Source: Chloroflexota bacterium (GTDB lineage: Bacteria > Chloroflexota > Dehalococcoidia > UBA2979). Taken from it: 64,000 bases of DNA. The position numbers and the translations under genes were made by a program. A model generated the notes under the pieces. It saw only the letters and a list, made by a program, of their open reading frames with translations. It was not told the DNA's origin and searched no databases. This document shows, in pieces, positions 1,056 to 18,233 of this stretch (position 1 is its first letter; every line of letters starts with the position of its first letter). The stretch lies in contig VGPD01000002.1 of assembly GCA_016875635.1 (NCBI GenBank), positions 13,090 through 77,089 of the forward strand, given 5' to 3'.

Positions 1056-1110
1056 CCCGCGGCTCCCGTCTCCCGCGTCGGCGGGTGATGAGAACACGCT
1101 AGTGACGAGG

Positions 1111-1162: not shown

Positions 1163-1474
1163 CAGGCGGTGCAGCATGTCAGTAGATGAGTACCACAACG
1201 ATGACCTTCTTACCTCTTCACCTGTTCACAGTGCGACACCGAGTTTGATGTTGCGCGGTCTGAGGACGAGCTTTCCCGTCCGGTGACCTGCCCGGTCGAC
1301 GGTGCGGTCGCACGCCGCGCGTACGGTCCTCCTTCGGCCACTCCGCGTACCGCCGCGCACCGCCCTACTCCTTCGTGGGGTGGCTACCTTCACGACCACG
1401 GACCCGGTACAGAGATGCACTGGCACGGCCCGAGCAGTCCCGGCTCGGCCTAGCCAGCGTCCGAGGCGGGCGCG

Positions 1475-1870
1475 TCAGCGCGACGCCGTCAGCTTCAGGC
1501 CCAGCGCACGTTCGAGCCGCCCGGAGAGGGCGGCCAGTGGCGCGCCATCGATCTCGACGTCGAATCGCACGGATCCGTCCTTCAGGCGCCAGGTGAGCGG
1601 TGCAGCGTGCGGGCTGACCCGACGCTGCATCTCGTCGGCTGCTGCCAGGAGGGCGCCCGCGCGCGTGATCGGCGCGCGGTCGGCGGGCGACAGGAGCGGG
1701 CGGTAGGCGGACACCGGGTCGTACTTTTCCGAGTCCGCCTGCCGGACGATTGCGCAGATCAGGGCAAGTTCTCGATGCGACCACCCGGGGAGCCCGTACG
1801 CGATTGCGAGGGCTTCGGTGTGGCGGTGGCGGTTGTAATAGTCCACGCCCCGCCCCAGGTCCAGAAGCAT
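1475..1870 (-). pseudogene. Ppx/GppA exopolyphosphatase C-terminal (HD-like) domain remnant overlapping the 3' end of ppk
   Basis: MLLDLGRGVDYYNRHRHTEALAIAYGLPGWSHRELALICAIV resembles the Ppx region LLHDIG..HHKHSAYII..LPGFSxRE. The N-terminal ~300 aa actin-like ATPase domain is absent. It overlaps ppk by about 110 nt in another frame. Confidence 0.4.
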
Positions 1871-3864
1871 CGGCGGCGATCGGCGAGCAGCATCTCGAGC
1901 GTCCTGAGCAGTCCGTTGCGGAGCGAGGGGTGTTTGATGGGGGTGAGCACCTCGATCCGTTCGTCGAGGTTGCGCTTCATCAGGTCCGCGCTGCCGATGA
2001 AGATCTCTGGATGGCCGTCGTTCTCGAAGTAGTACGCGCGTGAGTGCTCCAGGAAGCGGCCGATGATGCTGATCACGCGGATCCGCTCGCTGAGGCCAGG
2101 CACGCCCGGCCTCAGCCGGCATATCCCGCGCACAATCAGGTCCACCTGGACGCCGGCCTGGCCGGCCCGGTACAGCAGCCGGGTGAAGTCACGGTCTTCC
2201 AGCGCGTTCATCTTGAAGATGATCCGGGCGGGCCGTCCGGCCCGTGCCGCCTCGATCTCACGTTCGACGCGGCGCTCCAACTCCGTGCGCAGGTTGATCG
2301 GTGCGACGAGCAGTTCGCGGGTGTCGAACCCTTCAGACATCCCCGTGAGGTGGTTGAAGACGCGCAGGAGGTCGCTGCAGATCGTGGGGTCAGAGGTGAA
2401 CAGGCCCAGGTCGGTGTAGACGCGCGCCGTGCGGGAGTTGTAGTTCCCGGTCCCGATGTGGCCGTACATCACGACCCCATTGACCTCCTCGCGCACCACG
2501 AGTGTGATCTTGCTGTGGACCTTCCGCCCGGGGTCCCCATAGCCAACGTGGATGCCTGCCTCCTCCAGCCGTCGTGCCCACTCGATGTTGTTCTCCTCGT
2601 CGAGGCGGGCGGTCAGTTCCACGAGCACCGCGACCTGCTTCCCGCGGGTGGAGGCCTCGATGAGCGACTGCAGGATCGGCGAGTCAGGGGATGTGCGGTA
2701 GGTCGTGTGTTTGATGGCGAGTACCTGCGGGTCGAGTGACGCTTCTTCGATGAAACGTGCGACCGTCGCATCGAACGACTCGTACGGGTGGTGCACCAGC
2801 ATGTCCTCGGACTGCAACGCCGCGAAAAACGCCGGCCGGTCCGTCAGGTTCGTGAATGCTGGCGGTATGGCCGGCGTTGTGAGGTGGAACGTCGCGTCGG
2901 CGAGCGGCAGACCGGCGACCTGGTGCAGGTCGACGAGGCCGAGCGGGCCGGTGCACTGGACGACATCGCCTCGCCCGAGGTCCAATTCTTCCAACAGCAG
3001 CTCTTCGCGTTCCGGGGTCAGCGCCACCGTGACTTCAAGGCTGACCGCCTCAGCCAGTCGGCGGCGCCTGACCTCCCGCTCGATCAGTTCGAGAAGGTCT
3101 TCGGCGGCTTCTCCGGGCGTCCCGAGTTCGATGCTCCTGAGCGCTCGCAGCATGCTGTGTTCGATGATCTCGACGCCGGGAAACAGCACGTTGAGGTGGG
3201 CGCCGATGAGGTCCTCGAGCAGGACGAACCGCATGTCGCCCGCCTCGACGAAACGGGGCCGGTTCTGCGGGACCTTCACCCGTGCGAACCGGTCGGTGCC
3301 CGTGCGCGGATCACGTAACCAGAGGGCAAGGGAGAGGCTGTTCGCGGAGATGAACGGGAAGGGGTGGGCAGGGTCGACGACCAGAGGGGTCAGCACCGGA
3401 TACACGGAGGTCATGAAGTAGTCGGTCAGCGACGCCCGCGCGGCGGGGTCGAGCGAGCCGAACGTGACAACGCGCACTCCGCGTGCTTCGAGCGCTGGTA
3501 CGAGCGTGCCGTGCCAACAGGCCTCGATCTCACGCCGCTGTGCGGCGCACCGCGCCGCGACCAGGGCGGACTGCTCCGCGATGCTGAGCCCATCGACCGT
3601 CAGGTGTCCGGGGTTCGTCCGCAGAATCTGCTTCAGCCAGGCGACCCGCTTCGAATAAAACTCATCGAGGTTGCTCGACGTAATCGCAAGGAACCGGACG
3701 CGCTCAAGCAGCGGGTTCCGCGGATCACAGGCCTCAGCGAGGACGCGGTCGTTGAAGTCGAGCCACGATAGTTCGCGGTTCTCGTAGAGGGAGATGTCAT
3801 CGAGGTCGACCGGCGGCGGGGCCGTCTCCGCATCGGGGGTTTGTTCAGTACCCATTCCATGCAC
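1759..3864 (-). CDS. ppk: polyphosphate kinase 1
   Basis: 701 aa. N-terminal LYxNRELSWLxFNxRVL, PLD-like HxK motifs (KVHSKITLV...), and a C-terminal LEHSRAYYF...GSADLMKRNLDERIEV. Confidence 0.9.
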   Translation of the reverse strand: MHGMGTEQTPDAETAPPPVDLDDISLYENRELSWLDFNDRVLAEACDPRNPLLERVRFLAITSSNLDEFYSKRVAWLKQILRTNPGHLTVDGLSIAEQSALVAARCAAQRREIEACWHGTLVPALEARGVRVVTFGSLDPAARASLTDYFMTSVYPVLTPLVVDPAHPFPFISANSLSLALWLRDPRTGTDRFARVKVPQNRPRFVEAGDMRFVLLEDLIGAHLNVLFPGVEIIEHSMLRALRSIELGTPGEAAEDLLELIEREVRRRRLAEAVSLEVTVALTPEREELLLEELDLGRGDVVQCTGPLGLVDLHQVAGLPLADATFHLTTPAIPPAFTNLTDRPAFFAALQSEDMLVHHPYESFDATVARFIEEASLDPQVLAIKHTTYRTSPDSPILQSLIEASTRGKQVAVLVELTARLDEENNIEWARRLEEAGIHVGYGDPGRKVHSKITLVVREEVNGVVMYGHIGTGNYNSRTARVYTDLGLFTSDPTICSDLLRVFNHLTGMSEGFDTRELLVAPINLRTELERRVEREIEAARAGRPARIIFKMNALEDRDFTRLLYRAGQAGVQVDLIVRGICRLRPGVPGLSERIRVISIIGRFLEHSRAYYFENDGHPEIFIGSADLMKRNLDERIEVLTPIKHPSLRNGLLRTLEMLLADRRRCFWTWGGAWTITTATATPKPSQSRTGSPGGRIENLP

Positions 3865-4014
3865 CGTAGACGGAGATTGTCAACGCCTGCGGATGTGCTC
3901 TTTGCCTCAATCTATGTATACGGATAATCCTATTTGGTGTTCAGTCCTGATCTTGTCTCGACCACTCATCCGTCCCGTGATAACACTGCCCGAATTGTTT
4001 GCTAGGGGGGTCAC

Positions 4015-5301
4015 ATGAGTACCGGTCCGCTCGCTGGCGTCCGGATTCTCGAATTCTCACAGATTGTCGCCGGCCCATTCGCGGGGGTGGCGCTCGCCCA
4101 GCTGGGGGCGGATGTGGTGAAGGTGGAGCCGCTCGAGGGAGAGGGGCGCCGTAACACTGGCGCTGTCGTCCCGAACGAGGGCAAGTACTTCCAGTCGTTG
4201 AACATCGGGAAGCGCAGCCTGACGGTGGACCTCTCGCGGCCCGAGGGGCAGGCGCTAATCCACCAGATCATCCCGACATTCGACGTGGTGATCTCGAACT
4301 ACCGCGTGGGTGTGCCGAAGAAGTTGAATATCGACTACGACACGCTCTCCAAACTGCGGCCGGGGCTGATCTACGCCACGATCACGGGATTCGGGGAGAA
4401 GGGCCCGTATGCGACGCGCGCCGGGTCGGACATTGTCGCGCAGGCATACAGCGGTTTGATGGCCGCGGAGGGGAAGGTGGACGAGTACGGCTCGCCGGCC
4501 TCGATTTCCAGCACGACGATGGCGGACCGCGGCACCGGCCTGGCGGCGGCGATGGGGATCATCGCGGCTCTGTACCACCGCGCCACCACGGGCGAGGGGC
4601 AGGAGATCAACGTGTCGCTGATCCAGACGGCGCTGGAGCTGCTCTCCGACAAGGTGATGCGTGAGCCGGTGCAGGACGCCACCCTCCGCGACCCGGTCGT
4701 CGCGCAACTGGTCGAGCGGCGGAACGCCGGCGCCTCGTATCAGGAGTTGCTCGATATCCGGAAAGGTGCGCTCCGCGGGCGCACCGCGCAGCGGCTGTAT
4801 TACGGCGGGTACGGCACGGCCAATGGTGCGCTCGTCCTCGGCGCGCTGACGAAGCAGAACCGCGTGCAGATCCGCGAGATCATCGGGATGACGGATGACC
4901 TCGACGACCCGGACTACGACAGCAACGCCCCCGGCGCGGCCGAACGCTTCGAGGCGTGGCACGAGAAAGTCCAGGCGATCCTGATGACGAAGACGGCGAA
5001 GGAGTGGGTGGCGCTCCTGCTCGCCAACGGCGTCCCGGCGAGCGAGGTGAACATCGCCGAGGAGATGTCCGAGGATCCGCACGTCGTGGCGACGGGGATG
5101 ATGGTGGACCTGGTCCACCCGATCACCGGGCCGCAGAAAGTCGTCGGTCCGCTGGTGAAAATGTCCGCGACGCCGACCGGTGTGCAGCGGTCCGCGCCGC
5201 CGCTGGGCTACCACTCGCGCGAGGTGCTCGCCGAGGCGGGGCTGCCCGATGGGGAGATCGCGACGCTCATCGAGATGGGTGTCGTCGGCGACCACAGCTA
5301 G
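4015..5301 (+). CDS. CoA-transferase family III protein (CaiB/BaiF/formyl-CoA transferase-like)
   Basis: N-terminal LAGVRILEFSQIVAGPFAGVALAQLGADVVKVEP is the signature opening of family III CoA transferases. 428 aa. Confidence 0.85.
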   Translation: MSTGPLAGVRILEFSQIVAGPFAGVALAQLGADVVKVEPLEGEGRRNTGAVVPNEGKYFQSLNIGKRSLTVDLSRPEGQALIHQIIPTFDVVISNYRVGVPKKLNIDYDTLSKLRPGLIYATITGFGEKGPYATRAGSDIVAQAYSGLMAAEGKVDEYGSPASISSTTMADRGTGLAAAMGIIAALYHRATTGEGQEINVSLIQTALELLSDKVMREPVQDATLRDPVVAQLVERRNAGASYQELLDIRKGALRGRTAQRLYYGGYGTANGALVLGALTKQNRVQIREIIGMTDDLDDPDYDSNAPGAAERFEAWHEKVQAILMTKTAKEWVALLLANGVPASEVNIAEEMSEDPHVVATGMMVDLVHPITGPQKVVGPLVKMSATPTGVQRSAPPLGYHSREVLAEAGLPDGEIATLIEMGVVGDHS

Positions 5302-5330
5302 GGGACGAGGACGCATCCGTCCCCACGCCG

Positions 5331-5358
5331 GAACGGCCCCGTGAAGGGGCCGTTTTGC
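5331..5358 (+). terminator. GC-rich hairpin followed by a T-run downstream of the CoA-transferase gene
   Basis: acggcccc-gtgaa-ggggccgt followed by tttgcg. A second hairpin, ggggacg...cgtcccc, lies immediately upstream (5302-5326). Confidence 0.5.
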
Positions 5359-5554
5359 GTGCAGCGGCTCGGAGACGATCGGAGCCAGAGCGGCGATCGG
5401 ATCTGGTGGAGGCCGCGTTGGTAGCAGGGCTGTGTGCCGTCCTTCGGGTGACAGGAAACCGTCAGGGTTGGCTAAAGCGGAGGATTAGTCGCTGTCCCGT
5501 CTTGTCTCTACGTCAGTGCGCAGGCAGGATCCACCCCTGCGCGCGGGGGGATTC

Positions 5555-5746
5555 ATGGACGTGTCCAACAGCACCGACGTGTTTCTGCGAGCGATGGTCT
5601 CGCAGGCACCGGTCTACATCGTGGCGATCGACGGCGAGGGGCGCTTCGTCAGGCTCGAAGGCGATCTGGTGCGAAGGATGGGGATCGACCCGGAGCGAGC
5701 GATCGGGGCATCGGCGTTCGATTACCTGCAGGTGTGCCGGTCCTAG
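5555..5746 (+). CDS. short PAS-like fragment ORF (possible remnant)
   Basis: MDVSNSTDVFLRAMVSQAPVYIVAIDGEGRFVRLEGDLVRRMGIDPERAIGASAFDYL looks like the N-terminal half of a PAS fold. Too short for a full domain, and it overlaps the 3' end of the SARP gene. Confidence 0.25.
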   Translation: MDVSNSTDVFLRAMVSQAPVYIVAIDGEGRFVRLEGDLVRRMGIDPERAIGASAFDYLQVCRS

Positions 5747-6942
5747 ACCGCTGTGAGCGCCTCCATGAGTGCCCGCTCGACCACGGCGGAAGGCTGCGCC
5801 CCCACCTCGCTCCTCAGGATGCGGCGGTAGTCCTCGTACTGCCGGCGTGCGTCCGTTCGCCGTCCCAGGTGGCCGTAATAGGTGATCAGCGCGACCTGGA
5901 ACTGCTCCTGGAGCGGGTCAGATTGCAACGCGCGTTCGCAGCATTCCACGCTCTGCTCGATGGCGCCGCGCACGGCGAAGGAGACGGCTGCCCGCGCGAG
6001 CAGGTCGTGGTAGAGCCGGCGCAGCCGGCGGTGGTGCGCGGTGGCCCACGCGCCGAAATCCTCTCCGGCGGCGAAGTCACCGCGGTACAGCGCGAGTGCG
6101 TCCTCGATGGCGGACGGAGATCCGACGCCGTCGCCGGCGCGAAGCGCAGCATGCGCACGGGTTTCGAAATCCACCGCGTCAATACGCAGCGTGGGAGTTT
6201 CATCGAGCACGTACATGGTGCCCTGACGCCGCAGCGGGACGTCCGGGCCGGCCGAGTTGAGCAGTTGCCGCAGGCCGTGGAGGAGTACGCGGAGCCGGGG
6301 GCCTGAGAGATCGATCGACTCGTCCGGCCAGAGATCCTCCGCGATCCAGTCGCGTTGCGCGCCGCCCGGACCGGCGATCGCGAGGTAGGCGAGCAATTCA
6401 AGCACCCGCCGCCGTGGTGGCATCGGCAGCGGGACGCCACCGGCGAGGAGTGCCACCGGGCCGAGCAGGCGGATGTCCAGGGTGGCGTTGGCCGGGGCGG
6501 TTGCTCCGCGGACGTGGATCGTGACGAGCGCGACCTCGCCTCCGGCCTCGCGGGACGGGGCGGCGATGACCGAGCCGCTGATCGGGATGCGACGGCCGTC
6601 GCGTGTCTGCCATTCGGCCCACGGGAGCGGCACAGGTTCATGTCGCACCAGCGCGTCGTAGACCGGACAGTCGACGGTCTGGCAGAGGCACTGCCCGTCG
6701 GGCAGGCCCGCGCCCATCAGTTCGTCGCAGGCGCGCCCCAGAATCTGGTCTTCCGGGATGCCCATGAGGTTCCGTGCGGCCTCGTTGGCGGCCAGGACGC
6801 GCTGCCCGGCGCCCACCACAAACGCGGCGTCCGCCGTGAGGTTCACCAGGTCGCTCAGCCTCATGGGAGTCCCATTCAAGGCAATCTGCTGTAACTGGGA
6901 TGTAACTCCCGACTCAGGGTGACCGGAAGTGACCAACGTCAC
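5743..6942 (-). CDS. SARP-family transcriptional regulator with N-terminal Cys-rich PAS-like sensor domain (PAS + OmpR-type wHTH + BTAD)
   Basis: LLGPVALLAGGVPLPMPPRRRVLELLAYLAIAGPGGAQRDWIAEDLWPDE is a SARP winged-helix. ALALYRGDFAAG...PLQEQFQVALITYYGHLGRRTDARRQYEDYRRILRSEVGAQPS is a BTAD. The N-terminal region has C-x13-C-x-C-x4-C. The track start is GTG at 6942; an ATG at 6864 is the alternative. Confidence 0.75.
   Translation of the reverse strand: MTLVTSGHPESGVTSQLQQIALNGTPMRLSDLVNLTADAAFVVGAGQRVLAANEAARNLMGIPEDQILGRACDELMGAGLPDGQCLCQTVDCPVYDALVRHEPVPLPWAEWQTRDGRRIPISGSVIAAPSREAGGEVALVTIHVRGATAPANATLDIRLLGPVALLAGGVPLPMPPRRRVLELLAYLAIAGPGGAQRDWIAEDLWPDESIDLSGPRLRVLLHGLRQLLNSAGPDVPLRRQGTMYVLDETPTLRIDAVDFETRAHAALRAGDGVGSPSAIEDALALYRGDFAAGEDFGAWATAHHRRLRRLYHDLLARAAVSFAVRGAIEQSVECCERALQSDPLQEQFQVALITYYGHLGRRTDARRQYEDYRRILRSEVGAQPSAVVERALMEALTAV
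6890..6907 (+). promoter_or_regulatory. tandem heptamer direct repeat TGTAACT-GGGA-TGTAACT (SARP-box-like, 11-bp periodicity)
   Basis: Read directly. It lies in the extreme 5' region or leader of the SARP gene, on the opposite strand. Confidence 0.4.
6929..6942. promoter_or_regulatory. 14-bp palindrome GTGACCAACGTCAC (candidate operator) at the SARP gene start
   Basis: Perfect inverted repeat GTGAC/GTCAC with a 4-bp spacer. A third GTGAC copy sits 7 bp upstream. Confidence 0.3.
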
Positions 6943-7044
6943 GCAGACGGATGTCTCCTGGCCCTCATTTCCGCCCGGCCGCCCGACGAATATGGCGGCG
7001 AATTCAAGTTAGGCGCTCAGATTGGTGGATGCGGTCGGCGGCGC

Positions 7045-7062
7045 TGTAACTGACGAGTAACT
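7045..7062 (+). promoter_or_regulatory. tandem heptamer direct repeat TGTAACT-GACG-AGTAACT (SARP-box-like), about 8 bp upstream of a -10-like GAGAAT, in front of the molybdoenzyme operon
   Basis: Read directly. The 7+4+7 architecture is the same as in known SARP binding sites. GAGAAT is at 7072-7077, and the alpha-subunit ATG is at 7147. Confidence 0.45.
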
Positions 7063-7146
7063 CGCAAGGGGGAGAATCCACGCAGATCGCGCATGCGGTC
7101 ACAAGCGCAAAGCGTACCGGTGTGGACGGAATCTGGAGCACGCCCG

Positions 7147-10100
7147 ATGAATGACCAGGCTCGGCTGCCTCGACGGTCGTTTCTGAAGCGCGCGGCGGCG
7201 ATCGGCGCTGGGGTCGCCCTTGCGGACGCACTGGCGTTCGAGCCGTGGCATCTGGAGGCGAGCGATCCGGTCACGGTGACGGAGCCGCTGAAGATCTACC
7301 CGGACCGGAAGTGGGAGAGCGTCTACCGCGACCTCTGGAAGCCCGACAGTTCGTACGTCTTCACCTGCGCCCCGAATGACACGCACGACTGTCTCCTGAG
7401 CGCCCAGGTGAAGAACGGCGTGGTCGTGCGCATTGCCCCGACCTACGGGTACGGGAAGGCGAAGGACCGGAACGGCAACGGCGCCTCCCACCGGTGGGAT
7501 CCGCGCGCCTGCCAGAAGGGCCTCGCGCTGGCGCGGAAGTTCTACGGCGACCGGCGGGTGAAGGGGCCGATGATCCGCAAGGGCTTCAAGGAGTGGGCGG
7601 ACGCGGGCTTCCCGCGCGAGGCCGACACTGGCAAACCGAAGATGGACACCTCGAAGCGCGGCGAGGACTCGTGGCTCAAGTTGCCCTGGGATGAGGCGTA
7701 CGCGTACGCGGCGAAGGCCTACCAGAACATCGCCACCACGTACTCAGGCGACAAGGGGGCACAGTTCCTGCAGAAGCAGGGCTACGACCCCGACATGATC
7801 AGCGCGATGTCCGGCGCCGGGACGCGCGCCCTGAAGATCCGCGGCGGCATGCCGTTGCTGGGGATCGGGCGCATCTTCGGCTTCTACCGCCACGCGAATA
7901 CGCTGGCGCTGCTGGACGACAGCATCCGGAAGGTGGGCAAGGACGCGGCGCTGGGCGCACGCGGGTGGGACAACTACTCGTGGCACACCGACCTGCCGCC
8001 GGGCCACCCGATGGTCACCGGCCACCAGACATTCGAGTTCGACCTGTTCGCGCCGGAGTATGCCGACCTGGTGGTCATGTTCGGCATGAACTGGATCTCG
8101 ACGAAGATGCCGGACGGGCACTGGTTGGCCGAGGCCCGGATGAAGGGCACGCGCCTGATCACGGTGACCACGGACTACCAGTCCACCTCCAACCGGGCGG
8201 ACGAGGTCATCATGATCCGCCCCGGCACGGACGCGGCGCTCGCGCTCTCCTGCTCCCAGTACATCATCGCGAACCGGTTGTACGACGAGGCTGCGGTCAA
8301 GCGGACGACGGACCTGCCGTTGCTGATCCGCATGGACACGAAGAAGTTGCTCTCCGCGTCGGACCTGGTGTCCGGGTATCAAGCGGCGACACTCACGAAC
8401 TACGTGACGATGCTGCCGACTGGCCAGTCGATGCCGACGCCGACGCAGCAAGCGACGATGTACCTGACGCCCGAGCAGCGCGCAGAGTGGGGTGACTTCG
8501 TCGTCTGGGACGCCCGCACCAGCCGTGCCGTGCCTGTGACACGCGACCAGGTGGGCGACAAGTTCACGACCGACCCGGCGCTTGAGGGCGAATTCGAGGT
8601 GACGCTGGCCAACGGCCAGAAGGTCAAGGCACGCACCGTCTTCTCACTGGTCAGGCAGTACCTGGACGACAACTTCACGCCGGCCGTGGCCTCCGAGGTC
8701 ACCTGGGCGCCGCAGGCCGCGATCGAGGGGCTGGCGAAGCAGATTGCGAAGGCGAAGCAGAAGACCCTGCTGCCGCACGGGATGGGGCCCAACCACTTCT
8801 TCAACGCCCACCTGAAGGACCGCGCGATCTTCCTGCTCGCGGCATTGACCGACAACATCGGCCACATCGGTGGAAATGTCGGTTCGTACGCAGGGAACTA
8901 CCGCGGCTCGGTGTTCAACGGGATCCCCCAGTTCATCCAGGAGAACCCGTTCGATCTGGAGCTCGACCCCACGAAGCCGGCCCGGCAGAAGGGCTACTAC
9001 AAGAGCGAGTCCGCCCACTACTACAACTACGGCGACCGACCACTGCGGGTCGGGAACAAGAACTTCACGGGCAAGTCGCACATGCCGTCGCCCACGAAGT
9101 TGATCCACGTCGGCAACTCCAACTCGCTGCTGGGGAACGCGAAGTGGCACCACGATGTCGTCCACAACACGCTGCCGAGGATCGAAGCGATCTTCGTGAA
9201 CGAGTGGTGGTGGACGGCCTCCTGTGAGTACGCGGACATCGTGTTCGGGGTGGACTCGTGGGCGGAGCACAAGTTCGTGGACGCGTCCGCGTCCTGCACC
9301 AACCCGTTCCTGCACATCTACCCGCGCTCGCCCCTGAAGCGGATCTTCGACACGCGCTCCGACTACGAGGTGCTGGCGGGGGTAGGGAAGGCGCTGGGCG
9401 CGCTCACCAATGACCAGCGCTTTGTGGACGCGTGGAAGTTCATCCACGAAGGGAAGTCGGAGGTCTACCTCCAGCGCATCTTCAACGCCTCCACGACCGC
9501 CCGCGGCTACGACGTCCTCGACCTGGAGGCGAAGGCCCAGCAGGGGATCCCGGCGCTGATGAATTTCCGCACCTACCCCCGTCAGGGTGGCTGGGAACAG
9601 CGGAACGAGAGCAAGCCGCAATACACGAAGACGGGCCGGCTGGAGTTTTACCGGGACGAGGCGGAATTCATCGAGCACGGGGAGAACCTGCCGGTGTTCC
9701 GCGAGCCGATCGACTCCACGTTCCACGAACCGAACGTGATCCACGGGAAGCCACACCCGATGCTCGCGCCGAGCGGGCCGGAGGTGTACGGGCTGAAAGT
9801 GGACGACCTCTCCGCGGAGGCGCGCCAGGTGCGCAACGTGGTGAAGTCGTGGTCGGAGTTGAAGGTCACGAAGCACCCGCTGACCAACAAGGATCCGAAC
9901 TTCAAGTTCATCTTCATCACGCCGAAGTACCGACACGGCGCGCACACGACGCCGGTCGACCTCGACTGGATCTCGATGCTGTTCGGCCCGTACGGGGACA
10001 TCCGGCGGCAGGACAAGCGCGCCCCGTGGGTGGGTGAGGGGTACATCGAGATCCACCCGAAGGACGCGAAGGCATTCGGCATCGAGGACGGTGACTACGT

Positions 10101-10620
10101 CTGGTTCGACGCCGACCCGGAGGACCGCCCGTACCGCGGGTGGAAAAAGGACGACCCGTACTACAAGGTGGCCCGCGGCATGGCACGGGCCCGGTACCAG
10201 GCCTCGTTGCAGCCCGGCGTCACGCGCATGTGGTTCCACATGTACGTCGCGACGAAGGGCTCGGTGAAGGGGCAGGCGACACGTCCCGACGGGCTGGCGA
10301 AGAGCCCCGAGACGAACTACCAGGCGATGTTCCGCTCCGGCAGCCACCAGAGCGGTACGCGCGCCTGGCTCGGGCCCACGCTGCAAACCGAGACCATGGC
10401 CCGCAAGCCGTACTTCGGGCAGTTGATGGGGAAGGGGTTCGAGGGGGACGTCCACTCGGTGGTCGGTGCTCCCAAGGAGTCCTTCATCAAGATCGAGCGT
10501 GCCGAAGAGGGCGCGGTGGGCGGCAAGGGCCTGTGGCTCCCCGCGAAGGAAGGACTGCGTCCGACCTACGAGTCCGACGCGATGAAGAAGTACCTGAGCG
10601 GCGCGTTCTTCAGCGCGTAG
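7147..10620 (+). CDS. Tat-exported molybdopterin oxidoreductase alpha subunit, NarG-like (type II DMSO reductase family; NxrA/pNarG-like), unknown substrate
   Basis: Twin-arginine motif [14 protein letters not shown]. The N-terminus aligns residue by residue with E. coli NarG FS0 (NarG THGVNCTGSCSWKIYVKNG versus here [19 protein letters not shown]), then RAC.KG and PMIRKG as in NarG. Start is preferred at ATG 7147 (GGAG 8 nt upstream) rather than the track start 7093. 1157 aa. Confidence 0.85.
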
Positions 10621-10659
10621 CCCTACGCCCCCGCGGGGGCACTGGAAGGGAACGGCCCG

Positions 10660-11790
10660 ATGCCTGACGTCTTCAACTGGCAGCTCGACCGTCCGATGAA
10701 GTACCAGTACGAGGAGGCGCGACCCCAGAAGCAGATCGCGTGGATCTTCGACACGAACAAGTGCATCGCGTGCCAGACCTGCACCATTGCGTGCAAATCC
10801 ACCTGGACCTCCGGCAGCGGCCAGGAGTACATGCTCTGGAACAACGTGGAGACGAAGCCGTTTGGCTTCTTCCCCACAGGCTGGGACGTGAAGCTCCTGG
10901 AGATCATGGGCCCGGACGCCTGGAAGGACGGGAAGTTCGCCGGCCAGACCGTCTTCGAGTCCGCGCCAGCCGCGGAGCGGGTGAAGGGCCACCTGTTCGA
11001 CGCCGACCACTGGTCCCACCCGAACCTGGGTGAGGACGAGCCGGCAGGCGAGGCGGCACGCGGGACACACATCGACAAGCTGCCGCACGACATGTGGTTC
11101 TCCTACCTCGCGCGGATCTGCAACCACTGCACCTATCCCGCCTGTCTTGCGGCCTGTCCGCGGCAGGCGATCTACAAGCGGCCGGAGGACGGCATCGTCC
11201 TCGTCGACCAGGAGCGCTGTCGCGGCTATCAGGAGTGCGCGAGCGCCTGCCCGTACAAGAAGACGATGTACAACGAGGACACGCGGGTCACGGAGAAGTG
11301 CATCGCCTGCTACCCGAAGATCGAGCAGGGGCTGCAGCCGCAGTGCGTCACCTCCTGTATCGGGAGGATCCGCCTCGCGGGTTTCATCAGCCCTCCGGGC
11401 AAGATCGACCCGAAGAACCCGATCGACTATCTGGTGAAGGTGAAGAAGGTCGCGCTGCCGCTGTACCCGCAGTCCGGCACCGAGCCGAACGTCTACTACA
11501 TCCCGCCGGTCCACTCGAAGCGCGAGTACCTCCGCCAGATGTTCGGCCCGGGCGTGGATGTCGCCGTCGACACCTACCTGAAGACCAAGGAAGACCCGCA
11601 GATGCTGGGCCTGTTCATGCTCTTCGGGTCGACCGAACGGATCATCCGGCAGTTCGAAGTGAAGGGCAGCATGGCGATCGGATACGACGAGACGGGGAAG
11701 GAGCTGGTGAGCGTCCCCGTCACGGAACCCAGCGTGGTGCGTGAATACTTCGACCGGGTGAACCAGACGTACGTCCACAACATCACCTAG
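10660..11790 (+). CDS. iron-sulfur beta subunit, NarH/NxrB/EbdB-like (four Cys clusters)
   Basis: QIAWIFDTNKCIACQTCTIACK, CNHCTYPACLAACP, CRGYQECASACP and CIACYPK...CVTSCIGRIR. 376 aa, shorter than NarH. Confidence 0.85.
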   Translation: MPDVFNWQLDRPMKYQYEEARPQKQIAWIFDTNKCIACQTCTIACKSTWTSGSGQEYMLWNNVETKPFGFFPTGWDVKLLEIMGPDAWKDGKFAGQTVFESAPAAERVKGHLFDADHWSHPNLGEDEPAGEAARGTHIDKLPHDMWFSYLARICNHCTYPACLAACPRQAIYKRPEDGIVLVDQERCRGYQECASACPYKKTMYNEDTRVTEKCIACYPKIEQGLQPQCVTSCIGRIRLAGFISPPGKIDPKNPIDYLVKVKKVALPLYPQSGTEPNVYYIPPVHSKREYLRQMFGPGVDVAVDTYLKTKEDPQMLGLFMLFGSTERIIRQFEVKGSMAIGYDETGKELVSVPVTEPSVVREYFDRVNQTYVHNIT

Positions 11791-11834
11791 CGCATCGGCA
11801 GTGATCGCGGACTCGACAGAGCGGAGTCGGAACC

Positions 11835-12779
11835 ATGGCAACAGATTCAGATGGGCCGGCTGGCACGCAGCAGAGTGAGACAACGGCAGAGGTCGGCCGG
11901 CGACAGTTCCTCAAGCGCGCCGGCGCCGCGGCCGCTGCGGGGACAGTCGGCGCCGGCGTCATCGGCTATGCGGCGACGAACAAGCGAGGCGCGGCGAAGT
12001 CCCTCGTCTGCGGCTACCGCGCTGGCGACCTGCCGGTTGTTGATCCGGCAAGCGCGGTCTGGACGCGGCGGTCCGCGTTCAAAGTGACCATGCTGGTCCA
12101 GAACATCGCGACGCCGCATGCTCCGGCGCTGGTCGTGCCGACCCTGAAAGTGCGGGCGCTTCACAACGGCACGCAGATCGCCTTTCACCTCGAGTGGGCG
12201 GACAACTCGAAAGACGAATTGAGCGGCCTCGCACGGTTCAACGACGCGGTCGCAGTGCAACTGGCGGCAGATTTCGCGAAGGAGGCGGCGACCGGGGTGA
12301 CCATGGGGGCGGTGGACAACCCCGTGCATATCCTGCAGTGGAAGGCCTCCTGGCAGTCGGACCTGGACAGCGGTCAGAAAACCTCGAAGGACATCTGGCC
12401 GAACATCTACAACGACGTGCGTCCGGAGCAACTGATGCCGGTCGACCAGGCGAAGAGCTGGTACCCCGGCTGGGCGGTCGGAAACCCGCTCTCACAGCGG
12501 GACAAGAAGTCTCCGGTGGAAGAGATGGTCGCCGTCGGGTTTGGGACGCTCACGACACACAAAGAGCAGGAGGCTGTGGGGAAGGGCATCCACGATCGCA
12601 ACCGCTGGCGCGTCGTGATCGCAATGCCGATGAAGGGGAACGGCGCCAACAAGGCGCAGGTGACGCCTGGGCAGACCCGCCAGATCGCCTTCGCCGTCTG
12701 GGACGGCGGTGAGGATCAACGCGGCTCTCGCAAGCAGTACGCCCTCTGGGTGCCGATGGAAGTGGAGGCCGTCGCATGA
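11835..12779 (+). CDS. putative heme-b gamma subunit (EbdC/DdhC/NxrC-like, EB_dh family) with its own Tat signal
   Basis: RRQFLKRAGAAAAAGTVGAGVIGYAA twin-arginine signal. Its size and position after the beta gene match gamma subunits of type II enzymes. No CxxCH motif. Confidence 0.5.
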   Translation: MATDSDGPAGTQQSETTAEVGRRQFLKRAGAAAAAGTVGAGVIGYAATNKRGAAKSLVCGYRAGDLPVVDPASAVWTRRSAFKVTMLVQNIATPHAPALVVPTLKVRALHNGTQIAFHLEWADNSKDELSGLARFNDAVAVQLAADFAKEAATGVTMGAVDNPVHILQWKASWQSDLDSGQKTSKDIWPNIYNDVRPEQLMPVDQAKSWYPGWAVGNPLSQRDKKSPVEEMVAVGFGTLTTHKEQEAVGKGIHDRNRWRVVIAMPMKGNGANKAQVTPGQTRQIAFAVWDGGEDQRGSRKQYALWVPMEVEAVA

Positions 12780-13552
12780 CCACCGCAACGCAGTCGCTTC
12801 CCCTGCAGGCCGCCATCTTCCGCTCTGCGCTGTACGAGACGCTCGCGCTCAGTTTCGCCTACCCCACACCTCATCTCGGTGAGCGGCTCGAAGACGCCAT
12901 CGCCGACCTGCTTGAATTGCCTGAGGTCGCCGAGGCTGGTTACGCCGACGACCTGATGCGCATGCGCGACGCGTTGGCCGCGTCTTCGACGGACGTGCTC
13001 GCCATGGAGCACAACCATCTGTTCGAGCATTCGACGTTCTGTTCACCGTATGAGACCGAGTACGAGCCGGACCCGTTCGCGAAGGCGCGCCAGCTGGCGG
13101 ACATCGCCGGCTTCTACACCGCCTTCGGGATGTCCGTGTCCACGATGCGGCCCACGTTGCAGGACTTCCTTGGCACGGAGCTCGAGTTCATGTCGTTCCT
13201 GGCGCGGAAAGAGGCGTACGCCGCGGCGCGCAATTGGAGGCATCGCCGGCAGGTGACGGTGGACGCCGAACGTGCGTTCCTGCACGACCACCTCGGGCGG
13301 TGGGAGAAGGCGGTCTGCAAGGACGTCACGGACCACACGGCGATGGAAGCCGGCATGAACAGCGCGGCCCCGTTCTTTGGCGCCGTCGCCTCGCTGTGCG
13401 TCCGGTTCGTGGAGGACGAGCTCCGCCGCTTTGGCACGAAGCCGCTGCGTCTCACTCAGCGGATGGTCGGCAACGAAGAACCTGTCGCCTGTCCGTTCGC
13501 GAGCGCCGCCGCCGAGGACGAGCTCGAACCGCTTGACCCGGTCGAGGATTAG
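12776..13552 (+). CDS. TorD/NarJ-family redox-enzyme maturation chaperone (delta subunit)
   Basis: ATGA overlap with the gamma gene. Acidic all-alpha protein with EHNHLFE, GFYTAFG and FLARKEAY motifs typical of NarJ/TorD/EbdD-like chaperones. Confidence 0.65.
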   Translation: MTTATQSLPLQAAIFRSALYETLALSFAYPTPHLGERLEDAIADLLELPEVAEAGYADDLMRMRDALAASSTDVLAMEHNHLFEHSTFCSPYETEYEPDPFAKARQLADIAGFYTAFGMSVSTMRPTLQDFLGTELEFMSFLARKEAYAAARNWRHRRQVTVDAERAFLHDHLGRWEKAVCKDVTDHTAMEAGMNSAAPFFGAVASLCVRFVEDELRRFGTKPLRLTQRMVGNEEPVACPFASAAAEDELEPLDPVED

Positions 13553-13569
13553 AGGTCTCCGAGGAGGAT

Positions 13570-14211
13570 GTGATGGTCACCGTGCAACGTACGGCCGGCC
13601 CGGCCGCCGCTCCTTCGACCACGCAGAGTGATGCGGAGTGGCTGACGGGTGTCTATGCGCGCTCTGCACAACGGCATGAACGCCTCTGTCCTCGGCAGGT
13701 CCTCGGTGTGCGCATGGGACTCGCGGCCGCGGAGGCGCTCGGCGTCGATCCGCGTGCGTCCGGGAAGGCACTCTACATCTTCGCAGAGACGGACGGCTGT
13801 TTCGCGGACGGTGTGGAGGCGGCCACCGGCTGTTCCATGGGGCACCGGAACATGCGACTGATGGACTACGGCCGAGTCGCGATCGTCGCGGTGCACATCG
13901 AGTCGGGTGCCGCGGTCCGCATATCCCCTGCGCCTGGCGTGCGTGAGGCTGCGTCGGCGTACGCGCCGGACGAGTCTCGGCGGTACTACCAGCAGCTGGA
14001 GGGTTACCAGGCGATGCCGGATGCGGATCTCCTCCGCATCCGCCCGGTGAGCCTGCGCGTCGACCTCGCCGCGTTGCTCGGTCGGAAGGGCTTGCGGGTC
14101 GACTGCGACCGCTGCGGGGAGGAGGTCCTCAATGGCCGCCAGCACCTCGAATCTGGCCGCCCGGTCTGCCAGGGATGCACAGGCGGGGCGTTCTACTCCG
14201 CGATGAGCTGA
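13570..14211 (+). CDS. FmdE-family protein with C-terminal zinc ribbon
   Basis: QVLGVRMGLAAAEALG...ETDGCFADGVEAATGCSMGHRNMRLMDYGRVAIVAV matches the FmdE domain. A C-terminal CDRCGEEV...CQGC is present. A GAGGAGG RBS precedes the gene. Confidence 0.6.
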   Translation: MMVTVQRTAGPAAAPSTTQSDAEWLTGVYARSAQRHERLCPRQVLGVRMGLAAAEALGVDPRASGKALYIFAETDGCFADGVEAATGCSMGHRNMRLMDYGRVAIVAVHIESGAAVRISPAPGVREAASAYAPDESRRYYQQLEGYQAMPDADLLRIRPVSLRVDLAALLGRKGLRVDCDRCGEEVLNGRQHLESGRPVCQGCTGGAFYSAMS

Positions 14212-14605
14212 AGCGTCCGTTCGAACTGAGCCCTTGTCTTTGCCTGTGAGTCGGGGATGAACGACCGGTCATGATTCCCATCCGGAACGCCGGTGGGGCC
14301 ATCGTCTGGACGATCTCGGGCCGGCTGACAGGTGGGAACCACCAAGGCGCGCCGGCAAGTAATTCTTTTGCACTGGGCCTTTACAGAGAGGTTCCGGCAC
14401 CCTCCGGGGCCTTTCTGTACGCATGTGCCATGGCGTGCCTAGCGGGAAGGTGGGGTAGGCCCGAGGTCGCGTTCCGGGGCGGGCGCTGCTAGGATGGGGG
14501 CAACACACGCCGAGGGCGCCGCATGGCGCCGGCCTCCCGCAACCGGGACAGACCACACCGCGCAGCGCGAAGACGCGCGCGGGACCTCCAATCCGAAGGA
14601 ACCAT

Positions 14606-17128
14606 GTGACTCCAGCTTTCCGCAGCCTGCTTAAGAAGGTTCTCGGCGCCACGCCCGAGGACGGTGATTCAGCCGCCTCCGCCCCTCCTCCGCCCGCCCA
14701 GTACGATCTAGGCGGCGATGACCGCCCTGACACGGCGCCTCGTGCTGACGACGGCGATGATGCCGACGGCGATGATGGCTCGCCACGTCGCCGTCGCGGT
14801 CGTCGAGGCGGTCGCAATCGTCGCAAACACTCCGAAGACGAGGCAGCCGATCCGGTAGCCGCTTCCACCCCACCCGCCGCCCGACCGGCTACGCGCCCGG
14901 CCACCGCCTTGGCCTCGCGTTCCATCGTGATCGCGCGTCGCCGCCCGGCGGGCACGCCCGCCCCGGTCGTCGCACCCGCGGAGACGCGCTCGTACGGGTG
15001 GGGTCGTCGGGTGGACGGTGACGACGCCCGCGACGGCGACCGTGGCCGCCGCGGTAACCGTCGCGTGGTCCGATCTCGCGACCAGCAGCACGAGCCGCCC
15101 CTCCCGGAAGACGTTGCGTTTCGGTCGCCGCCCGAGGGAGGCGACCGGACGATCTTCCCGGGGCGCCGTCGTCGTCCACAGGTCATCCGCGAGGATGAGC
15201 GCGTGCTGCTCGCGGGGCCGCGGAGCCTCGGTGGGTGGATCGAACACGACATTCCGCTGCAGCCGTACGAGGCCTACCTGCCGCGTCCGTATGCGGTCGC
15301 TGTCGCCCTCGGCGTGCACGACCCCTTTGCCCTAGTCACGCCGCAAGGTGTGGCAGTGGACCCCGACCTGGTGCCAGCGGTCGACCCGCAGGCGATCGCC
15401 CTCGAGGTAGAGGCGATCACCGAGGCTGCGCTGGCGCCGGCAGAAGCCGATGGCACTTCGCCGGCCGGCGAAGGCGAAGGTGCGCAGAAACGTCGCCGTC
15501 GTGGACGCCGTGGCGGGCGTAACCGCCGCCGCAGTGCTGACGGCGTCTCGTTCGACGGCGCGACGGACGAAATCGATGCCGCCGTTGACGAGATCACGAG
15601 TGCGGTGGGCCTCGAAGAAGGCGCACCTGCAGTGAGCGAGTTCGACGCGATCGAGACGCTGGCGCCCGCCACGGTCGATGCGAGTGTCCATGTCGTGCCA
15701 CATCAGGCAGCGGCGCCGGAGATCGAGCGCATTGCCGTGACGCCAGAGCGTGGTCGTGTACCTGATGAAGATGACCGGCCGCGTGTTGAACGAAGGCGCA
15801 GCACTCGGACACGAAGCGCCGACGCCACATCGGTCCGTGCGGAGGCGACTGCCGCGTCCGAGGCGGCTCCCGCGCAGGCGCCTGAGGCGCGAACGGCCAC
15901 ACGTCGGGCACGGCCTGCGACGGCCACCGCCGACCCGTCAACGTACCCGCAGGCGTTTGTCGGGCTGGGCGCCACGGAGCGGACGCTTCCGGCGCTGGCC
16001 TCGTTCGGATTCCAGACCCCGACGCCGATCCAGGAGCAGGCGATCCCTGCCCTCATGGGTGGCCGCGACGTGGTGGGCATCGCGAAGACCGGTTCGGGCA
16101 AGACCGTCGCGTTCGGCGTGCCGATGGTAGAGAAACTGGACGCCGACCTCGGCGAAGTGCAGGGCATCGTGCTGGTGCCGACGCGTGAACTCGCGCAGCA
16201 GGTCCTTGAGGTGCTCCAGCTGCTGGCCGCCCCGCGCGGCATGCAGGCGATCGGCCTGCTGGGCGGGCACGCGATCCGGAACGACCTCCAGGCCCTGGAA
16301 CGCCGCCCGCAGATCGTCGTGGGGACGCCCGGACGGATCATCGACCACCTGCAGCGCGGCACCCTCTCGCTCCGCCTGGTGACGTATGCCGTGCTCGACG
16401 AGGCCGACCAGATGCTGGACATCGGCTTCCTGCCGGACATTCGCCGCATCCTGAGCCGCACTCCGAAGCGACGCCAGACCGCGCTGTTCTCCGCGACGAT
16501 GCCCGGGAGCATCCGGCGGTTGATCTGGCAGTTCATGTCCGACACTCAGCAGGTCGCGGTCGACGCGGAGTCGACGCCGGTGGAGTCGATCGAGCAGATC
16601 TACTTCGAGGTCGCCCATCGCGACAAAGCGGCGGGTCTGCGCGAGCTGATCGAGCGCGAGCTGAAGGGGCGCACGCTGGTCTTCTGCAAGACGAAGCGCG
16701 CGGTAGATATGCTGGAGGCGAACCTCTCGCGCATGGGTGTCCGCGTCGGTGCGTTGCATGGCGACATGGACCAGCGCCACCGTGACCACGTCATCGCCGA
16801 CTTCCGCTCGGGTGCGCTCGACGTCCTCGTGGCGACGAATGTGGCGGCGCGCGGGCTGGACATCCCGGAGATCACCCACGTCCTCAATTTCGACGTCCCC
16901 CAGAACCCCGAGGAGTACGTCCACCGGATCGGCCGGACCGGCCGCGCCGGCCGGGAGGGCAAAGCGATCACATTCGTCTCCGAGTGGGACATGGCCGAGT
17001 TCGACGCGATCCGTGCCGAGTTCGGTGACCGCCTCCACGAAGAGCGGTTGGACCTCTACCGCCCTCGTACCCCTCTCCGCTCTGCTTCTCTGGAGACGGA
17101 TTCCGGGGCAGCCCCCGCCGCTGATTAG
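14606..17128 (+). CDS. DEAD-box ATP-dependent RNA helicase with ~420-aa disordered Arg/Asp/Ala/Pro-rich N-terminal extension
   Basis: Q-motif (FGFQTPTPIQEQAIP), Walker A AKTGSGKT, DEAD (VLDEADQM), SAT, HRIGRTGRAG. GTG start at 14606 with an AAGGA RBS. The N-terminal repeat RRRRGRRGGRNRR occurs twice. Confidence 0.8.
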   Translation: MTPAFRSLLKKVLGATPEDGDSAASAPPPPAQYDLGGDDRPDTAPRADDGDDADGDDGSPRRRRGRRGGRNRRKHSEDEAADPVAASTPPAARPATRPATALASRSIVIARRRPAGTPAPVVAPAETRSYGWGRRVDGDDARDGDRGRRGNRRVVRSRDQQHEPPLPEDVAFRSPPEGGDRTIFPGRRRRPQVIREDERVLLAGPRSLGGWIEHDIPLQPYEAYLPRPYAVAVALGVHDPFALVTPQGVAVDPDLVPAVDPQAIALEVEAITEAALAPAEADGTSPAGEGEGAQKRRRRGRRGGRNRRRSADGVSFDGATDEIDAAVDEITSAVGLEEGAPAVSEFDAIETLAPATVDASVHVVPHQAAAPEIERIAVTPERGRVPDEDDRPRVERRRSTRTRSADATSVRAEATAASEAAPAQAPEARTATRRARPATATADPSTYPQAFVGLGATERTLPALASFGFQTPTPIQEQAIPALMGGRDVVGIAKTGSGKTVAFGVPMVEKLDADLGEVQGIVLVPTRELAQQVLEVLQLLAAPRGMQAIGLLGGHAIRNDLQALERRPQIVVGTPGRIIDHLQRGTLSLRLVTYAVLDEADQMLDIGFLPDIRRILSRTPKRRQTALFSATMPGSIRRLIWQFMSDTQQVAVDAESTPVESIEQIYFEVAHRDKAAGLRELIERELKGRTLVFCKTKRAVDMLEANLSRMGVRVGALHGDMDQRHRDHVIADFRSGALDVLVATNVAARGLDIPEITHVLNFDVPQNPEEYVHRIGRTGRAGREGKAITFVSEWDMAEFDAIRAEFGDRLHEERLDLYRPRTPLRSASLETDSGAAPAAD

Positions 17129-17236
17129 TCCTCGCCGGGAAATCCCCTGCGAGCTTGCGCGCGTACACTACGGGCACCTGGGCGCGCCATGGCGTCGGGA
17201 TCAGAGCGGCGCGTGCCGCCGGCTGGGGGGTAAGGC

Positions 17237-18233
17237 GATGCGGCGACTCTCGATTGGCGTGAACTGGCAGGGCGCGTTCGACCTCAACGAGGTGATCGAA
17301 CAGGCGAAAGTCGCCGACGACGCCGGGGTCGAACTGCTCTCGATCGCGGAGGCATGGGGACGGGACGCGCTCACGCTGCTCGCAGTGCTGGCGCGGGAGA
17401 CGTCTCGCATCAAACTCGGCACGTCAATCGTCAACATCTTCTCGCGGACGCCGGCGGCGCTGGCGCAGCATTTCGCGACGCTGGACGAACTCTCAGGCGG
17501 TCGCATGTTGATCGGCCTCGGTTCCTCGGGGCCGAATGTCATCGAGCACTTCCACGGGATGCCGTTCGACCGGCCGCTGCAGCGGACTCGCGAGTACATC
17601 GAGATCATCAACATGATCATGGCCGAGCAGCCGCTGAACTACAACGGCAAGATCTTCAAGCTGGAGCGCGGGTTCACCCTGCGCTTCAAGCCGGTACGTC
17701 CGCACATCCCGATCCACATCGCTTCGATCACACCGAAGAGTCTGCAGCAGACCGCGCGGCTGGCGGACGGCTGGATCCCGATCTTCCTGCCGAAGCCGCA
17801 GTGGAAGCCGCAGCTCGACGCGTTCTACTCGATGGTGGATGCAGCCGGCCGCCAGCGCTCTGAGGTGGACGTGCGGAACCCCAGTGCCGTGGTCGTCTCG
17901 GAGAACCGCGAGGCGGTAAAGGCGGCCGAGGCGGGTAACGCAGCGTTCTATATTGCGCGCATGGGCGACTTCTACTATGAGCACTTTTCCCGCATGGGGT
18001 ACGCCGACGAGGCGAACGCGGTGCGACGCGCGTGGGCGGACGGCGGTTCCGCCGCCGGCGCTGCCGCGCTCCCGCGTGACCTGGTGGAGGACCTGAGCAC
18101 CGTCGGCTCGGTGGACGAGTGCGTCGACGCACTCGAAGAGGCGCGAGAGGCCGGCTTCACGCTCCACGGTGTGAGCGTGCACGAGCGCGACCCGAAGAAG
18201 CGGTACGAGATCTACCGGCGCCTCGTCGGGTAG
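17237..18233 (+). CDS. LLM-class (luciferase-like) flavin/F420-dependent oxidoreductase
   Basis: TIM-barrel LLM signatures (LLSIAEAWG, RIKLGTSIVNI, GRMLIGLGSSGP). Start at internal ATG 17237, 331 aa. Confidence 0.7.

Follow-up and report, generated by a model that had tools for sequence, protein, structure and literature searches.

Here we describe an operon of five genes in a 64,000-nucleotide stretch of DNA (the window) from a Chloroflexota bacterium of the class Dehalococcoidia (lineage UBA2979; assembly GCA_016875635.1, contig VGPD01000002.1, positions 13,090 to 77,089 of the forward strand). The operon, at window positions 7147-14211, is predicted to encode an exported molybdenum enzyme of the periplasmic nitrite oxidoreductase/nitrate reductase (NXR/NAR) family, the type present in Nitrospira, anammox bacteria and Methanoperedens. 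It displays all the defining features of this family that can be tested in sequence, but not those that define cytoplasmic NarGHI or the curated subfamily of Ebd/Ser/Ddh/Clr/Pcr enzymes. For the catalytic alpha subunit, nitrate/nitrite is by far the most likely substrate, as family affiliation and the unaltered active-site motifs indicate, and we somewhat favor a reading in which the products form an extracytoplasmic heterotrimeric oxidoreductase that would serve nitrate reduction in a facultative heterotroph rather than nitrite oxidation. The operon adds a member to a described family, and its alpha protein is already deposited in NCBI.

The five open reading frames (ORFs) are co-directional on the + strand, tightly spaced and intact, with a strong third-position GC bias in each (GC3 0.80-0.92). 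The first encodes the NxrA/NarG-like alpha subunit (7147-10620, 1157 aa), predicted to carry the molybdenum bis-molybdopterin guanine dinucleotide cofactor (Mo-bisMGD; Pfam Molybdopterin 1e-18, Molydop_binding weak) and beginning with a signal for twin-arginine translocation (Tat) (residues 1-30, nucleotides 7147-7236; RRSFLK...ALA followed by F, with an A/G-rich h-region). It is followed by the NxrB/NarH-like Fe-S subunit beta (10660-11790, 376 aa; Fer4_11 9e-31), which has no signal peptide and is presumably exported bound to alpha, and by the NxrC/EbdC-like heme-b subunit gamma (11835-12779, 314 aa; EB_dh, PF09459, 6e-22), which has a twin-arginine signal of its own (R22-R23, ~11835-11999). 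The last two genes encode delta, a maturation chaperone of the NarJ/TorD family (12776-13552, 258 aa; PF02613 9e-18), and an FmdE-family protein whose C-terminal part has a CxxC...CxxC zinc ribbon (13570-14211, 213 aa; PF02663 3e-24). The five genes and their families are thus as the initial annotation had listed them, but the 4-nt overlaps that it described hold for gamma/delta only (ATGA), the other junctions being gaps of 39 nt (alpha/beta), 44 nt (beta/gamma) and 17 nt (delta/FmdE). Its statement that neither NarI nor narK is present also stands: no segment of the five operon proteins reaches transmembrane-like hydrophobicity, no membrane subunit is encoded, and searching the rest of the window revealed no narK-type gene and no further gene of the nitrogen cycle or of respiration.

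The start of alpha can be placed securely at 7147, because a GGAG lies 8 nt upstream of this ATG, because the protein read from it matches MBM4409829.1 ('MAG: molybdopterin oxidoreductase [Chloroflexi bacterium]') with 100% identity along its 1157 aa, and because a 1-nt indel between ATG 7093 and 7147 in the related metagenome-assembled genome (MAG) SURF_43 puts 7093 out of frame there. The upstream ATG 7093 was ruled out as a start on the same grounds.

Compared with solved structures, alpha aligns end to end with Kuenenia stuttgartiensis NxrA (PDB 7B04_B, 911 bits, E=7e-273; ~42% identity over 856 aligned residues), and its scores against PcrA, EbdA and E. coli NarG are 171, 139 and 111 bits. 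The best structural matches of beta and gamma are NXR-B (7B04_A, 382 bits, 2e-113) and NXR-C (7B04_C, 78 bits, 5e-21) of the same Kuenenia complex, well ahead of Pcr, Ebd and Nar proteins. None of the operon proteins reaches an equivalog or subfamily cut-off in NCBIfam, hence the generic database name of alpha. The NarG model TIGR01580 gives alpha 131 bits against a cut-off of 1084, and the top models are those of the type II DMSO reductases (TIGR03479/03478/03477/03482), which likewise stay below their cut-offs (alpha 301 vs 985, beta 268 vs 481, gamma 126 vs 170, and delta, with TIGR03482 at 4e-17, 63 vs 152). These scores bear out the description of the enzyme as NXR/periplasmic Nar-like rather than Ebd/Ser/Ddh-like. 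They argue against the companion suggestion that a hydrocarbon, sterol, selenate or chlorate substrate is equally compatible, alpha being 5-8x closer in bit score to NxrA than to PcrA, EbdA or NarG; the 58-61% identity to homologs from Methanoperedens nitroreducens and Nitrospirota and the retained active-site motifs speak against it too.

A homology search returned 2800 proteins at E<=1e-50, and a scan of one genome per species gives a family of at least 598 confirmed stretches. Among the matches listed, the closest is the Dehalococcoidia MAG SURF_43 (alpha 91% identical), in which synteny with the window extends into flanking genes (CoA-transferase 97%, regulator 85%). Alpha is 69-77% identical to its counterparts in other Dehalococcoidia and 55-61% identical to those outside the class among the 80 closest loci, including Nitrospirota MAGs (~61%), a Brocadiia MAG (59%), Ca. 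Methanoperedens nitroreducens (L044, 58%) and the large sulfur bacteria Thioploca, Thiomargarita and Parabeggiatoa (56-58%). Homologs are also present in many Acidobacteriota, Planctomycetota and Actinomycetota. The order alpha-beta-gamma(-delta) is kept in most of the 80 loci, and the full five-gene order is also found in locus L082. The NXR/NAR family has been widely reported in MAGs, including those of Chloroflexi (PMC3971608, PMC8245535, PMC10732223, PMC9562985), and Chloroflexi members have been reported before (PMC3971608).

In a neighbor-joining tree of the window, its 80 closest homologs (of at least 598) and E. coli NarG, the window falls inside a clade made up of Dehalococcoidia only (window, L001-L009, L017; bootstrap 100%). 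A clade of Actinomycetota (Gaiellales, Thermoleophilia; bootstrap 100%), together with one further Actinomycetota sequence, joins it with 93% bootstrap. The resulting subclade stands apart from the groups affiliated with Nitrospirota, with Methanoperedens/Omnitrophica, with the large sulfur bacteria and with Acidobacteriota/Planctomycetota. Alpha lies outside the cytoplasmic NarG lineage, E. coli NarG, the sole cytoplasmic Nar compared, being a distant outgroup on a long branch.

Ligands of the metal cofactors in alpha and beta are all in place. In an alignment with NarG and with Kuenenia numbering, the FS0 cluster motif of alpha is C74-x3-D78-x3-C82-x39-C122, which is of the Cys/Asp type. KsNXR has a 3Cys/Asp-type FS0, whereas that of ethylbenzene dehydrogenase (EBDH) is of the His type (PMC8387239). 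Residues C74/N77/D78/C82/D282 correspond to Ks Cys67/Asn70/Asp71/Cys75/Asp275, while Asn77 corresponds to NarG Asn52, the molybdenum ligand Asp282 to NarG Asp222, and His550 to NarG His546. The motif GMGPNH and one further alpha motif are kept in at least 95% of the sampled family, including the Methanoperedens homolog. Of 333 alpha columns with a conservation of at least 95% in the other clades, the Dehalococcoidia clade retains 303, and its consistent clade-specific changes number five and are all conservative (N/D, Y/F, W/F, E/D, K/R), so that there is no sign of an altered substrate pocket. The Kuenenia tunnel-entrance residues Tyr528 and Asp611 could not be mapped onto alpha, since the phmmer alignment has Gly at chain position 528 and the numbering no longer corresponds. 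In beta, all 15 cluster-ligand Cys of NarH are kept, as they are in 100% of family members, which fits a predicted set of three [4Fe-4S] clusters and one [3Fe-4S] cluster. Two remarks of the initial annotation need revision here: the N-terminus of alpha, described as NarG-like, has the Cys/Asp Fe-S motif of NXR and not the His motif of NarG, and beta, described as "only" 376 aa long, has exactly the median length of the family. Its assignments of a Tat signal to alpha and of heme b to gamma, however, are upheld by the evidence that follows.

With the start fixed at 7147, the RRSFLK motif of alpha passes the Tat hidden Markov model TIGR01409 (18.7 bits; cut-off 16.7), and RR motifs are present in alpha of most of the 80 homologs. 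The RRQFLK motif of gamma passes the same model with 24.4 bits. Besides its EB_dh domain, gamma has Met157 and Lys300 aligned with the heme-b ligands Met155 and Lys305 of the Kuenenia protein, and these residues are conserved in 62/63 and 63/63 homologs, respectively. Neither a lipobox nor a transmembrane anchor was found in gamma. In all Dehalococcoidia-clade loci that contain gamma, the protein starts with S/G/D-R-R-x-F-[LV] followed by an A/G-rich hydrophobic stretch, and gamma of the sister Actinomycetota clade has a T-R-[RK] motif; in other lineages, gamma has a Sec signal, a lipoprotein box or an N-terminal hydrophobic anchor. Both phyla with a Tat-type gamma are generally regarded as single-membrane, and this distribution suggests that gamma may acquire its heme in the cytoplasm and be exported in folded form by Tat.

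The chaperone delta scores 65.1 bits against PF02613 (Nitrate_red_del; gathering cut-off 22.2) and has no sequence relative in the PDB at E<=0.01; its gene follows that of gamma in most related loci. The FmdE domain of the fifth protein scores 86 bits (gathering cut-off 22.9) and matches PDB 2GVI at 8e-13, and its zinc ribbon has the form CxxC-x17-CxxC from residue 179. Every Dehalococcoidia-clade locus that extends far enough has a gene of the FmdE family beside the operon, but such a gene appears in only 3 of the remaining 70 loci. It encodes either a protein of ~200 aa with a zinc ribbon or a MobB-FmdE fusion, and in relatives the fusions lie at the same or a divergent position. MobB is a protein of MGD cofactor synthesis, and this fusion, together with the operon linkage, suggests that the FmdE-like protein is probably an accessory in molybdenum cofactor handling. 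No specific result came from a literature search that combined FmdE with the maturation of nitrate reductases. In the Actinomycetota clade, both loci examined (L046 16474-17838, L049 6446-7819) have a gene for a BBE-like FAD-linked oxidase (FAD_binding_4 + BBE, ~455 aa) directly after delta.

Divergently from the operon lies a gene (5743-6942, - strand) for a putative regulator of the SARP/AfsR type, with PAS, winged-helix and BTAD domains (Pfam BTAD 2e-17, PAS_4 3e-6). Residues 146-389 match an AfsR region in NCBIfam, and Trans_reg_C is detected in the L004 ortholog. Homologs of the regulator adjoin the operon in L001 and L004-L008. Three Cys in the PAS domain are conserved across orthologs in the arrangement C-x14-C-x4-C (residues ~72-92 of the ORF), with a fourth Cys in the window protein, and these may form a metal or Fe-S site for redox/O2 sensing.

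SARPs bind direct repeats of about 11-bp periodicity near the target promoter. The direct repeat GTAACT-N5-GTAACT, which has an 11-bp period, occurs just twice in 64 kb (0.02 expected), once beside the regulator start (6891-6907, +) and once 101 nt upstream of the alpha ATG (7046-7062, +), a candidate activator site of the operon promoter; the copy beside the regulator start is conserved in SURF_43. The likely true start of the regulator is Met27 (nucleotide 6864), which would probably place the first repeat, a candidate SARP operator, in the regulator's own 5' region. A related repeat, GTAACG-N6-GTAACG, is found ~100-170 nt upstream of alpha in L004-L008 (L004 7445-7462, L005 9899, L006 9903, L007 9811, L008 2160). 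The GTAAC[T/G] pattern with an 11-12 bp period has nine matches in 1.44 Mb of loci, all of them in the six regulator-bearing loci. We propose these repeats as the candidate operator of the PAS-SARP regulator, with a coherent predicted regulon. Scans for other regulatory elements gave no RNA element, Moco riboswitches included, upstream of alpha at gathering score, and none at E<=1 in 6850-7200; a scan of 6800-14500 for sigma-70 promoters and intrinsic terminators found 0 of each, which is uninformative for a Chloroflexi genome of 67% GC. In L004 (HGW-Chloroflexi-9), a second, inverted GTAACG pair is present at 4116-4161 in a divergent promoter region (flanking genes 712-4100, -, and 3996-5584, +), with Nitro_FeMo-Co-like and MobB-FmdE genes on one side and, on the other, genes for a 308-aa protein and two radical SAM proteins (one SPASM), which may belong to the same regulon. 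We regard the Tat-type gamma, the link to FmdE and the predicted PAS-SARP regulon as modest variations at the level of the clade, and found no description of them in the searchable literature.

Among characterized systems, the operon products are most readily compared with Kuenenia NXR-ABC (PDB 7B04; Chicano et al. 2021, PMC8387239), a soluble complex of three subunits without a membrane subunit. The two share the Asp ligand of molybdenum, the substrate Asn, the Cys/Asp FS0, the NarH-type cluster Cys and the Met/Lys heme b. In contrast to Kuenenia, neither NXR-T (the tubule-inducing cytochrome c) nor another cytochrome gene lies near the window operon, gamma carries a Tat signal, the operon comes with an FmdE gene and a SARP-type regulator, beta is ~35 aa shorter (376 aa, compared with 410), and the host, a Chloroflexi bacterium, has no anammoxosome. 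With the genomic homolog in Ca. Methanoperedens nitroreducens (L044; alpha 58%, beta 58% identical) it has in common a Tat-exported alpha, an EB_dh gamma, a NarJ-like chaperone and an FmdE-like ORF in the locus. The Methanoperedens locus is, however, archaeal and of another subclade, with delta before gamma and a hydrophobic N-terminal anchor on gamma. The periplasmic NXR of Nitrospira and Nitrospina agrees in family, in size (~1145-1150 aa) and in the Tat signal on alpha, and an Asp-type FS0 has been noted for it (PMC8387239, PMC3578206); it differs in forming a separate clade, and the gamma candidates of the sampled Nitrospirota loci carry Sec-type signals.

More distant systems share parts of this design. 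EbdABCD, Pcr, Ser, Ddh and Clr follow the same logic of a Tat-exported alpha, a beta, a gamma with EB_dh heme b and Met/Lys ligands and a NarJ-like delta, giving a soluble periplasmic complex. The window alpha, however, exceeds EbdA (976 aa) and PcrA (899 aa) by ~180-260 aa in length, and its FS0 is of the Cys/Asp type rather than the His type of EBDH (PMC8387239). E. coli NarGHJI shares the Mo-Asp ligand, the Asn, the His546 equivalent, the 15 beta cluster Cys and a NarJ-family chaperone. It differs in that NarG is not exported by Tat, in the di-heme membrane subunit NarI, in a His-type FS0, in the longer NarH (512 aa, compared with 376 for the window beta) and in its need for NarK transport.

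Taken together, these features suggest the following working of the enzyme. Delta would hold apo-alpha during insertion of Mo-bisMGD and the FS0 cluster, with the FmdE-like zinc-ribbon protein helping in cofactor handling. The folded alpha-beta dimer would then be exported by Tat on the RRSFLK signal of alpha, while gamma would take up heme b in the cytoplasm and leave on its own Tat signal. Outside the membrane, nitrate/nitrite would bind at the molybdenum, with Asp282 as the ligand and Asn77 opposite, as the Kuenenia structure suggests. Electrons would pass between the molybdenum, FS0 (3 Cys + Asp78), the clusters FS1-FS4 in beta and the Met157/Lys300 heme b in gamma, and heme b would exchange them with a redox partner encoded outside the operon. 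No nitrate/nitrite transporter would be needed because the active site faces outward. Expression would probably be controlled by the PAS-SARP activator through the GTAACT direct repeats.

The direction in which the enzyme would run is the point on which the two best readings part. Both directions are documented in the family: the Kuenenia NXR, whose structure has been solved, catalyzes nitrite oxidation and nitrate reduction in vitro (PMC8387239), the respiratory nitrate reductase of the demonstrated nitrate reducer Methanoperedens belongs to the NxrA group (PMC7327174), and the Thermogutta enzyme is a respiratory nitrate reductase (PMC10732223). Our preference for nitrate reduction is drawn, weakly, from the habitats of the relatives, the Cys-rich PAS sensor-regulator, the co-located maturation genes and the organotrophic flanks. 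The closest relatives presumably come from anoxic or suboxic sites (deep mine fluid, deep groundwater, lake oxycline), judging from their isolate names and the nature of the sites so named. Co-located cofactor-maturation genes resemble inducible respiratory operons. The rest of the 64 kb contains housekeeping and organotrophic genes, such as ppk, CoA-transferase, acyl-CoA dehydrogenase, gyrA and purEK, and no oxidase or autotrophy genes were found within it.

The same enzyme might instead be run as a nitrite oxidase, passing electrons via the gamma heme b to a cytochrome and a terminal oxidase in an unrecognized or auxiliary nitrite oxidizer, which we consider possible but clearly less probable than nitrate reduction. 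The canonical periplasmic nitrite oxidoreductases of anammox bacteria and of Nitrospira, Nitrospina and Nitrotoga belong to the family (PMC10732223, PMC3578206), and several surveys label such MAGs as putative nitrite-oxidizing bacteria (PMC11265455, PMC9562985). The FS0 type of alpha is that of KsNXR, and gamma keeps the Met/Lys ligation of heme b that has been described as high-potential for Kuenenia NXR and EBDH. On the other hand, the clade is distinct from the one affiliated with Nitrospirota, and the sampled Nitrospirota neighbors themselves include orders that are not nitrite oxidizers, for example Thermodesulfovibrionales and magnetotactic Nitrospirota. In the window and in L082-L084, the neighborhood of the operon contains no gene for an oxidase, a cytochrome c or CO2 fixation, and the relatives, judging again from isolate names and sites, presumably stem largely from anoxic subsurface or suboxic water. 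We know of no cultured nitrite oxidizer among the Dehalococcoidia, which also counts against nitrite oxidation.

Several points weigh against the favored reading. Direction within the NXR/NAR family is not inferable from sequence (PMC10839748, PMC10732223, PMC8245535, PMC9562985), because its members are nitrite oxidases, nitrate reductases or both. The missing oxidase and CO2-fixation genes say little, since 64 kb is a few percent of the genome. No redox partner or membrane attachment was recognized for the enzyme, and none is conserved beside the operon in L082-L084 and L004. The phylogenetic placement comes from neighbor-joining on the 80 closest homologs and not from maximum likelihood with curated references, and the predicted function throughout the Dehalococcoidia clade is read from sequence. 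The role given to FmdE derives from gene linkage and domain fusion only, and the Tat signal of gamma could be cleaved or serve as an anchor.

A larger claim would be that the subclade represents an adaptation to a single membrane, combining a Tat-exported and possibly tethered gamma, the FmdE/MobB-FmdE module and the Cys-rich PAS-SARP sensor, and in its boldest form that nitrite-oxidizing Dehalococcoidia exist; we regard this as rather unlikely. If true, subsurface and lake Dehalococcoidia would add a new lineage of nitrite oxidizers.

It is very unlikely that the enzyme is a type II DMSO-reductase relative acting on another substrate such as chlorate, perchlorate or selenate, or hydroxylating a hydrocarbon or sterol. 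The shared subunit architecture of Ebd, Ser, Ddh, Clr and Pcr and the top-ranking NCBIfam models would agree with such a role, the nitrate/nitrite assignment for the clade stems from sequence comparison, and the BBE-like oxidase gene in the Actinomycetota clade shows that accessory content varies. These are outweighed by bit scores to PcrA and EbdA that are 5-6x below that to NxrA, by the shortfall of alpha against TIGR03479, by the two active-site motifs kept across the family and by the lack of any clade-specific change in the active site. Least probable of all is a decaying or non-expressed, horizontally acquired operon without current function: the patchy spread of the family across many phyla suggests frequent lateral transfer, but the five ORFs are intact with a strong GC3 coding bias, all cofactor ligands are intact, base composition is the same as in the flanks, synteny with SURF_43 extends into housekeeping-type genes, and the monophyly of the Dehalococcoidia clade at 100% bootstrap points to vertical maintenance.

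What the operon contributes is a complete and conserved, predicted outward-facing enzyme in uncultured Dehalococcoidia of deep subsurface fluids, groundwater and lakes. Because it has its own regulator and cofactor-maturation genes, the enzyme probably takes an active part in the nitrate/nitrite turnover of these habitats. Metagenome surveys count NXR/NAR homologs as 'nitrite oxidation' or 'nitrate reduction' without means to tell the two apart. Expression studies and heterologous production could start from the gamma Tat signal, the link to FmdE and the PAS-SARP regulator with its candidate repeat operator, while knowledge of the NXR/NAR family itself is unchanged by the operon.

The remainder of the window holds a number of other features. 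Just downstream of the operon, a Cys-rich ORF at 14269-15252 (-, 327 aa) was considered as a sixth gene and rejected, having no Pfam or NCBIfam match, weak coding bias and no counterpart in related loci; it is doubtful that it is a real gene. Some kilobases downstream of the operon, the window has a gene for a luciferase-like, probably F420-dependent oxidoreductase (16737-18233), as do its 76%-identical relatives L083 and L084 (18322-19266); the luciferase-like proteins of the window and these relatives share ~32% identity, and their position may be a coincidence in Chloroflexi. At 45932-49688 (-), a 775-aa VWA-domain protein is encoded beside a 466-aa AAA+ ATPase (MoxR/AAA_5-like), a typical chaperone-like pair that appears unrelated to the operon. 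Two tRNA genes are present, tRNA-Pro(CGG) at 29821-29897 and tRNA-Arg(TCG) at 54520-54595; as the former lies inside the listed ORF 29509-31176, the Peptidase_C26/GGACT gene there must start downstream of the tRNA. A c-di-AMP riboswitch (RF00379, 55.3 bits vs 38) at 55772-55927 (+) is located directly upstream of a 600-aa ORF (55946-57748) with weak matches to glycosyltransferase family 2.

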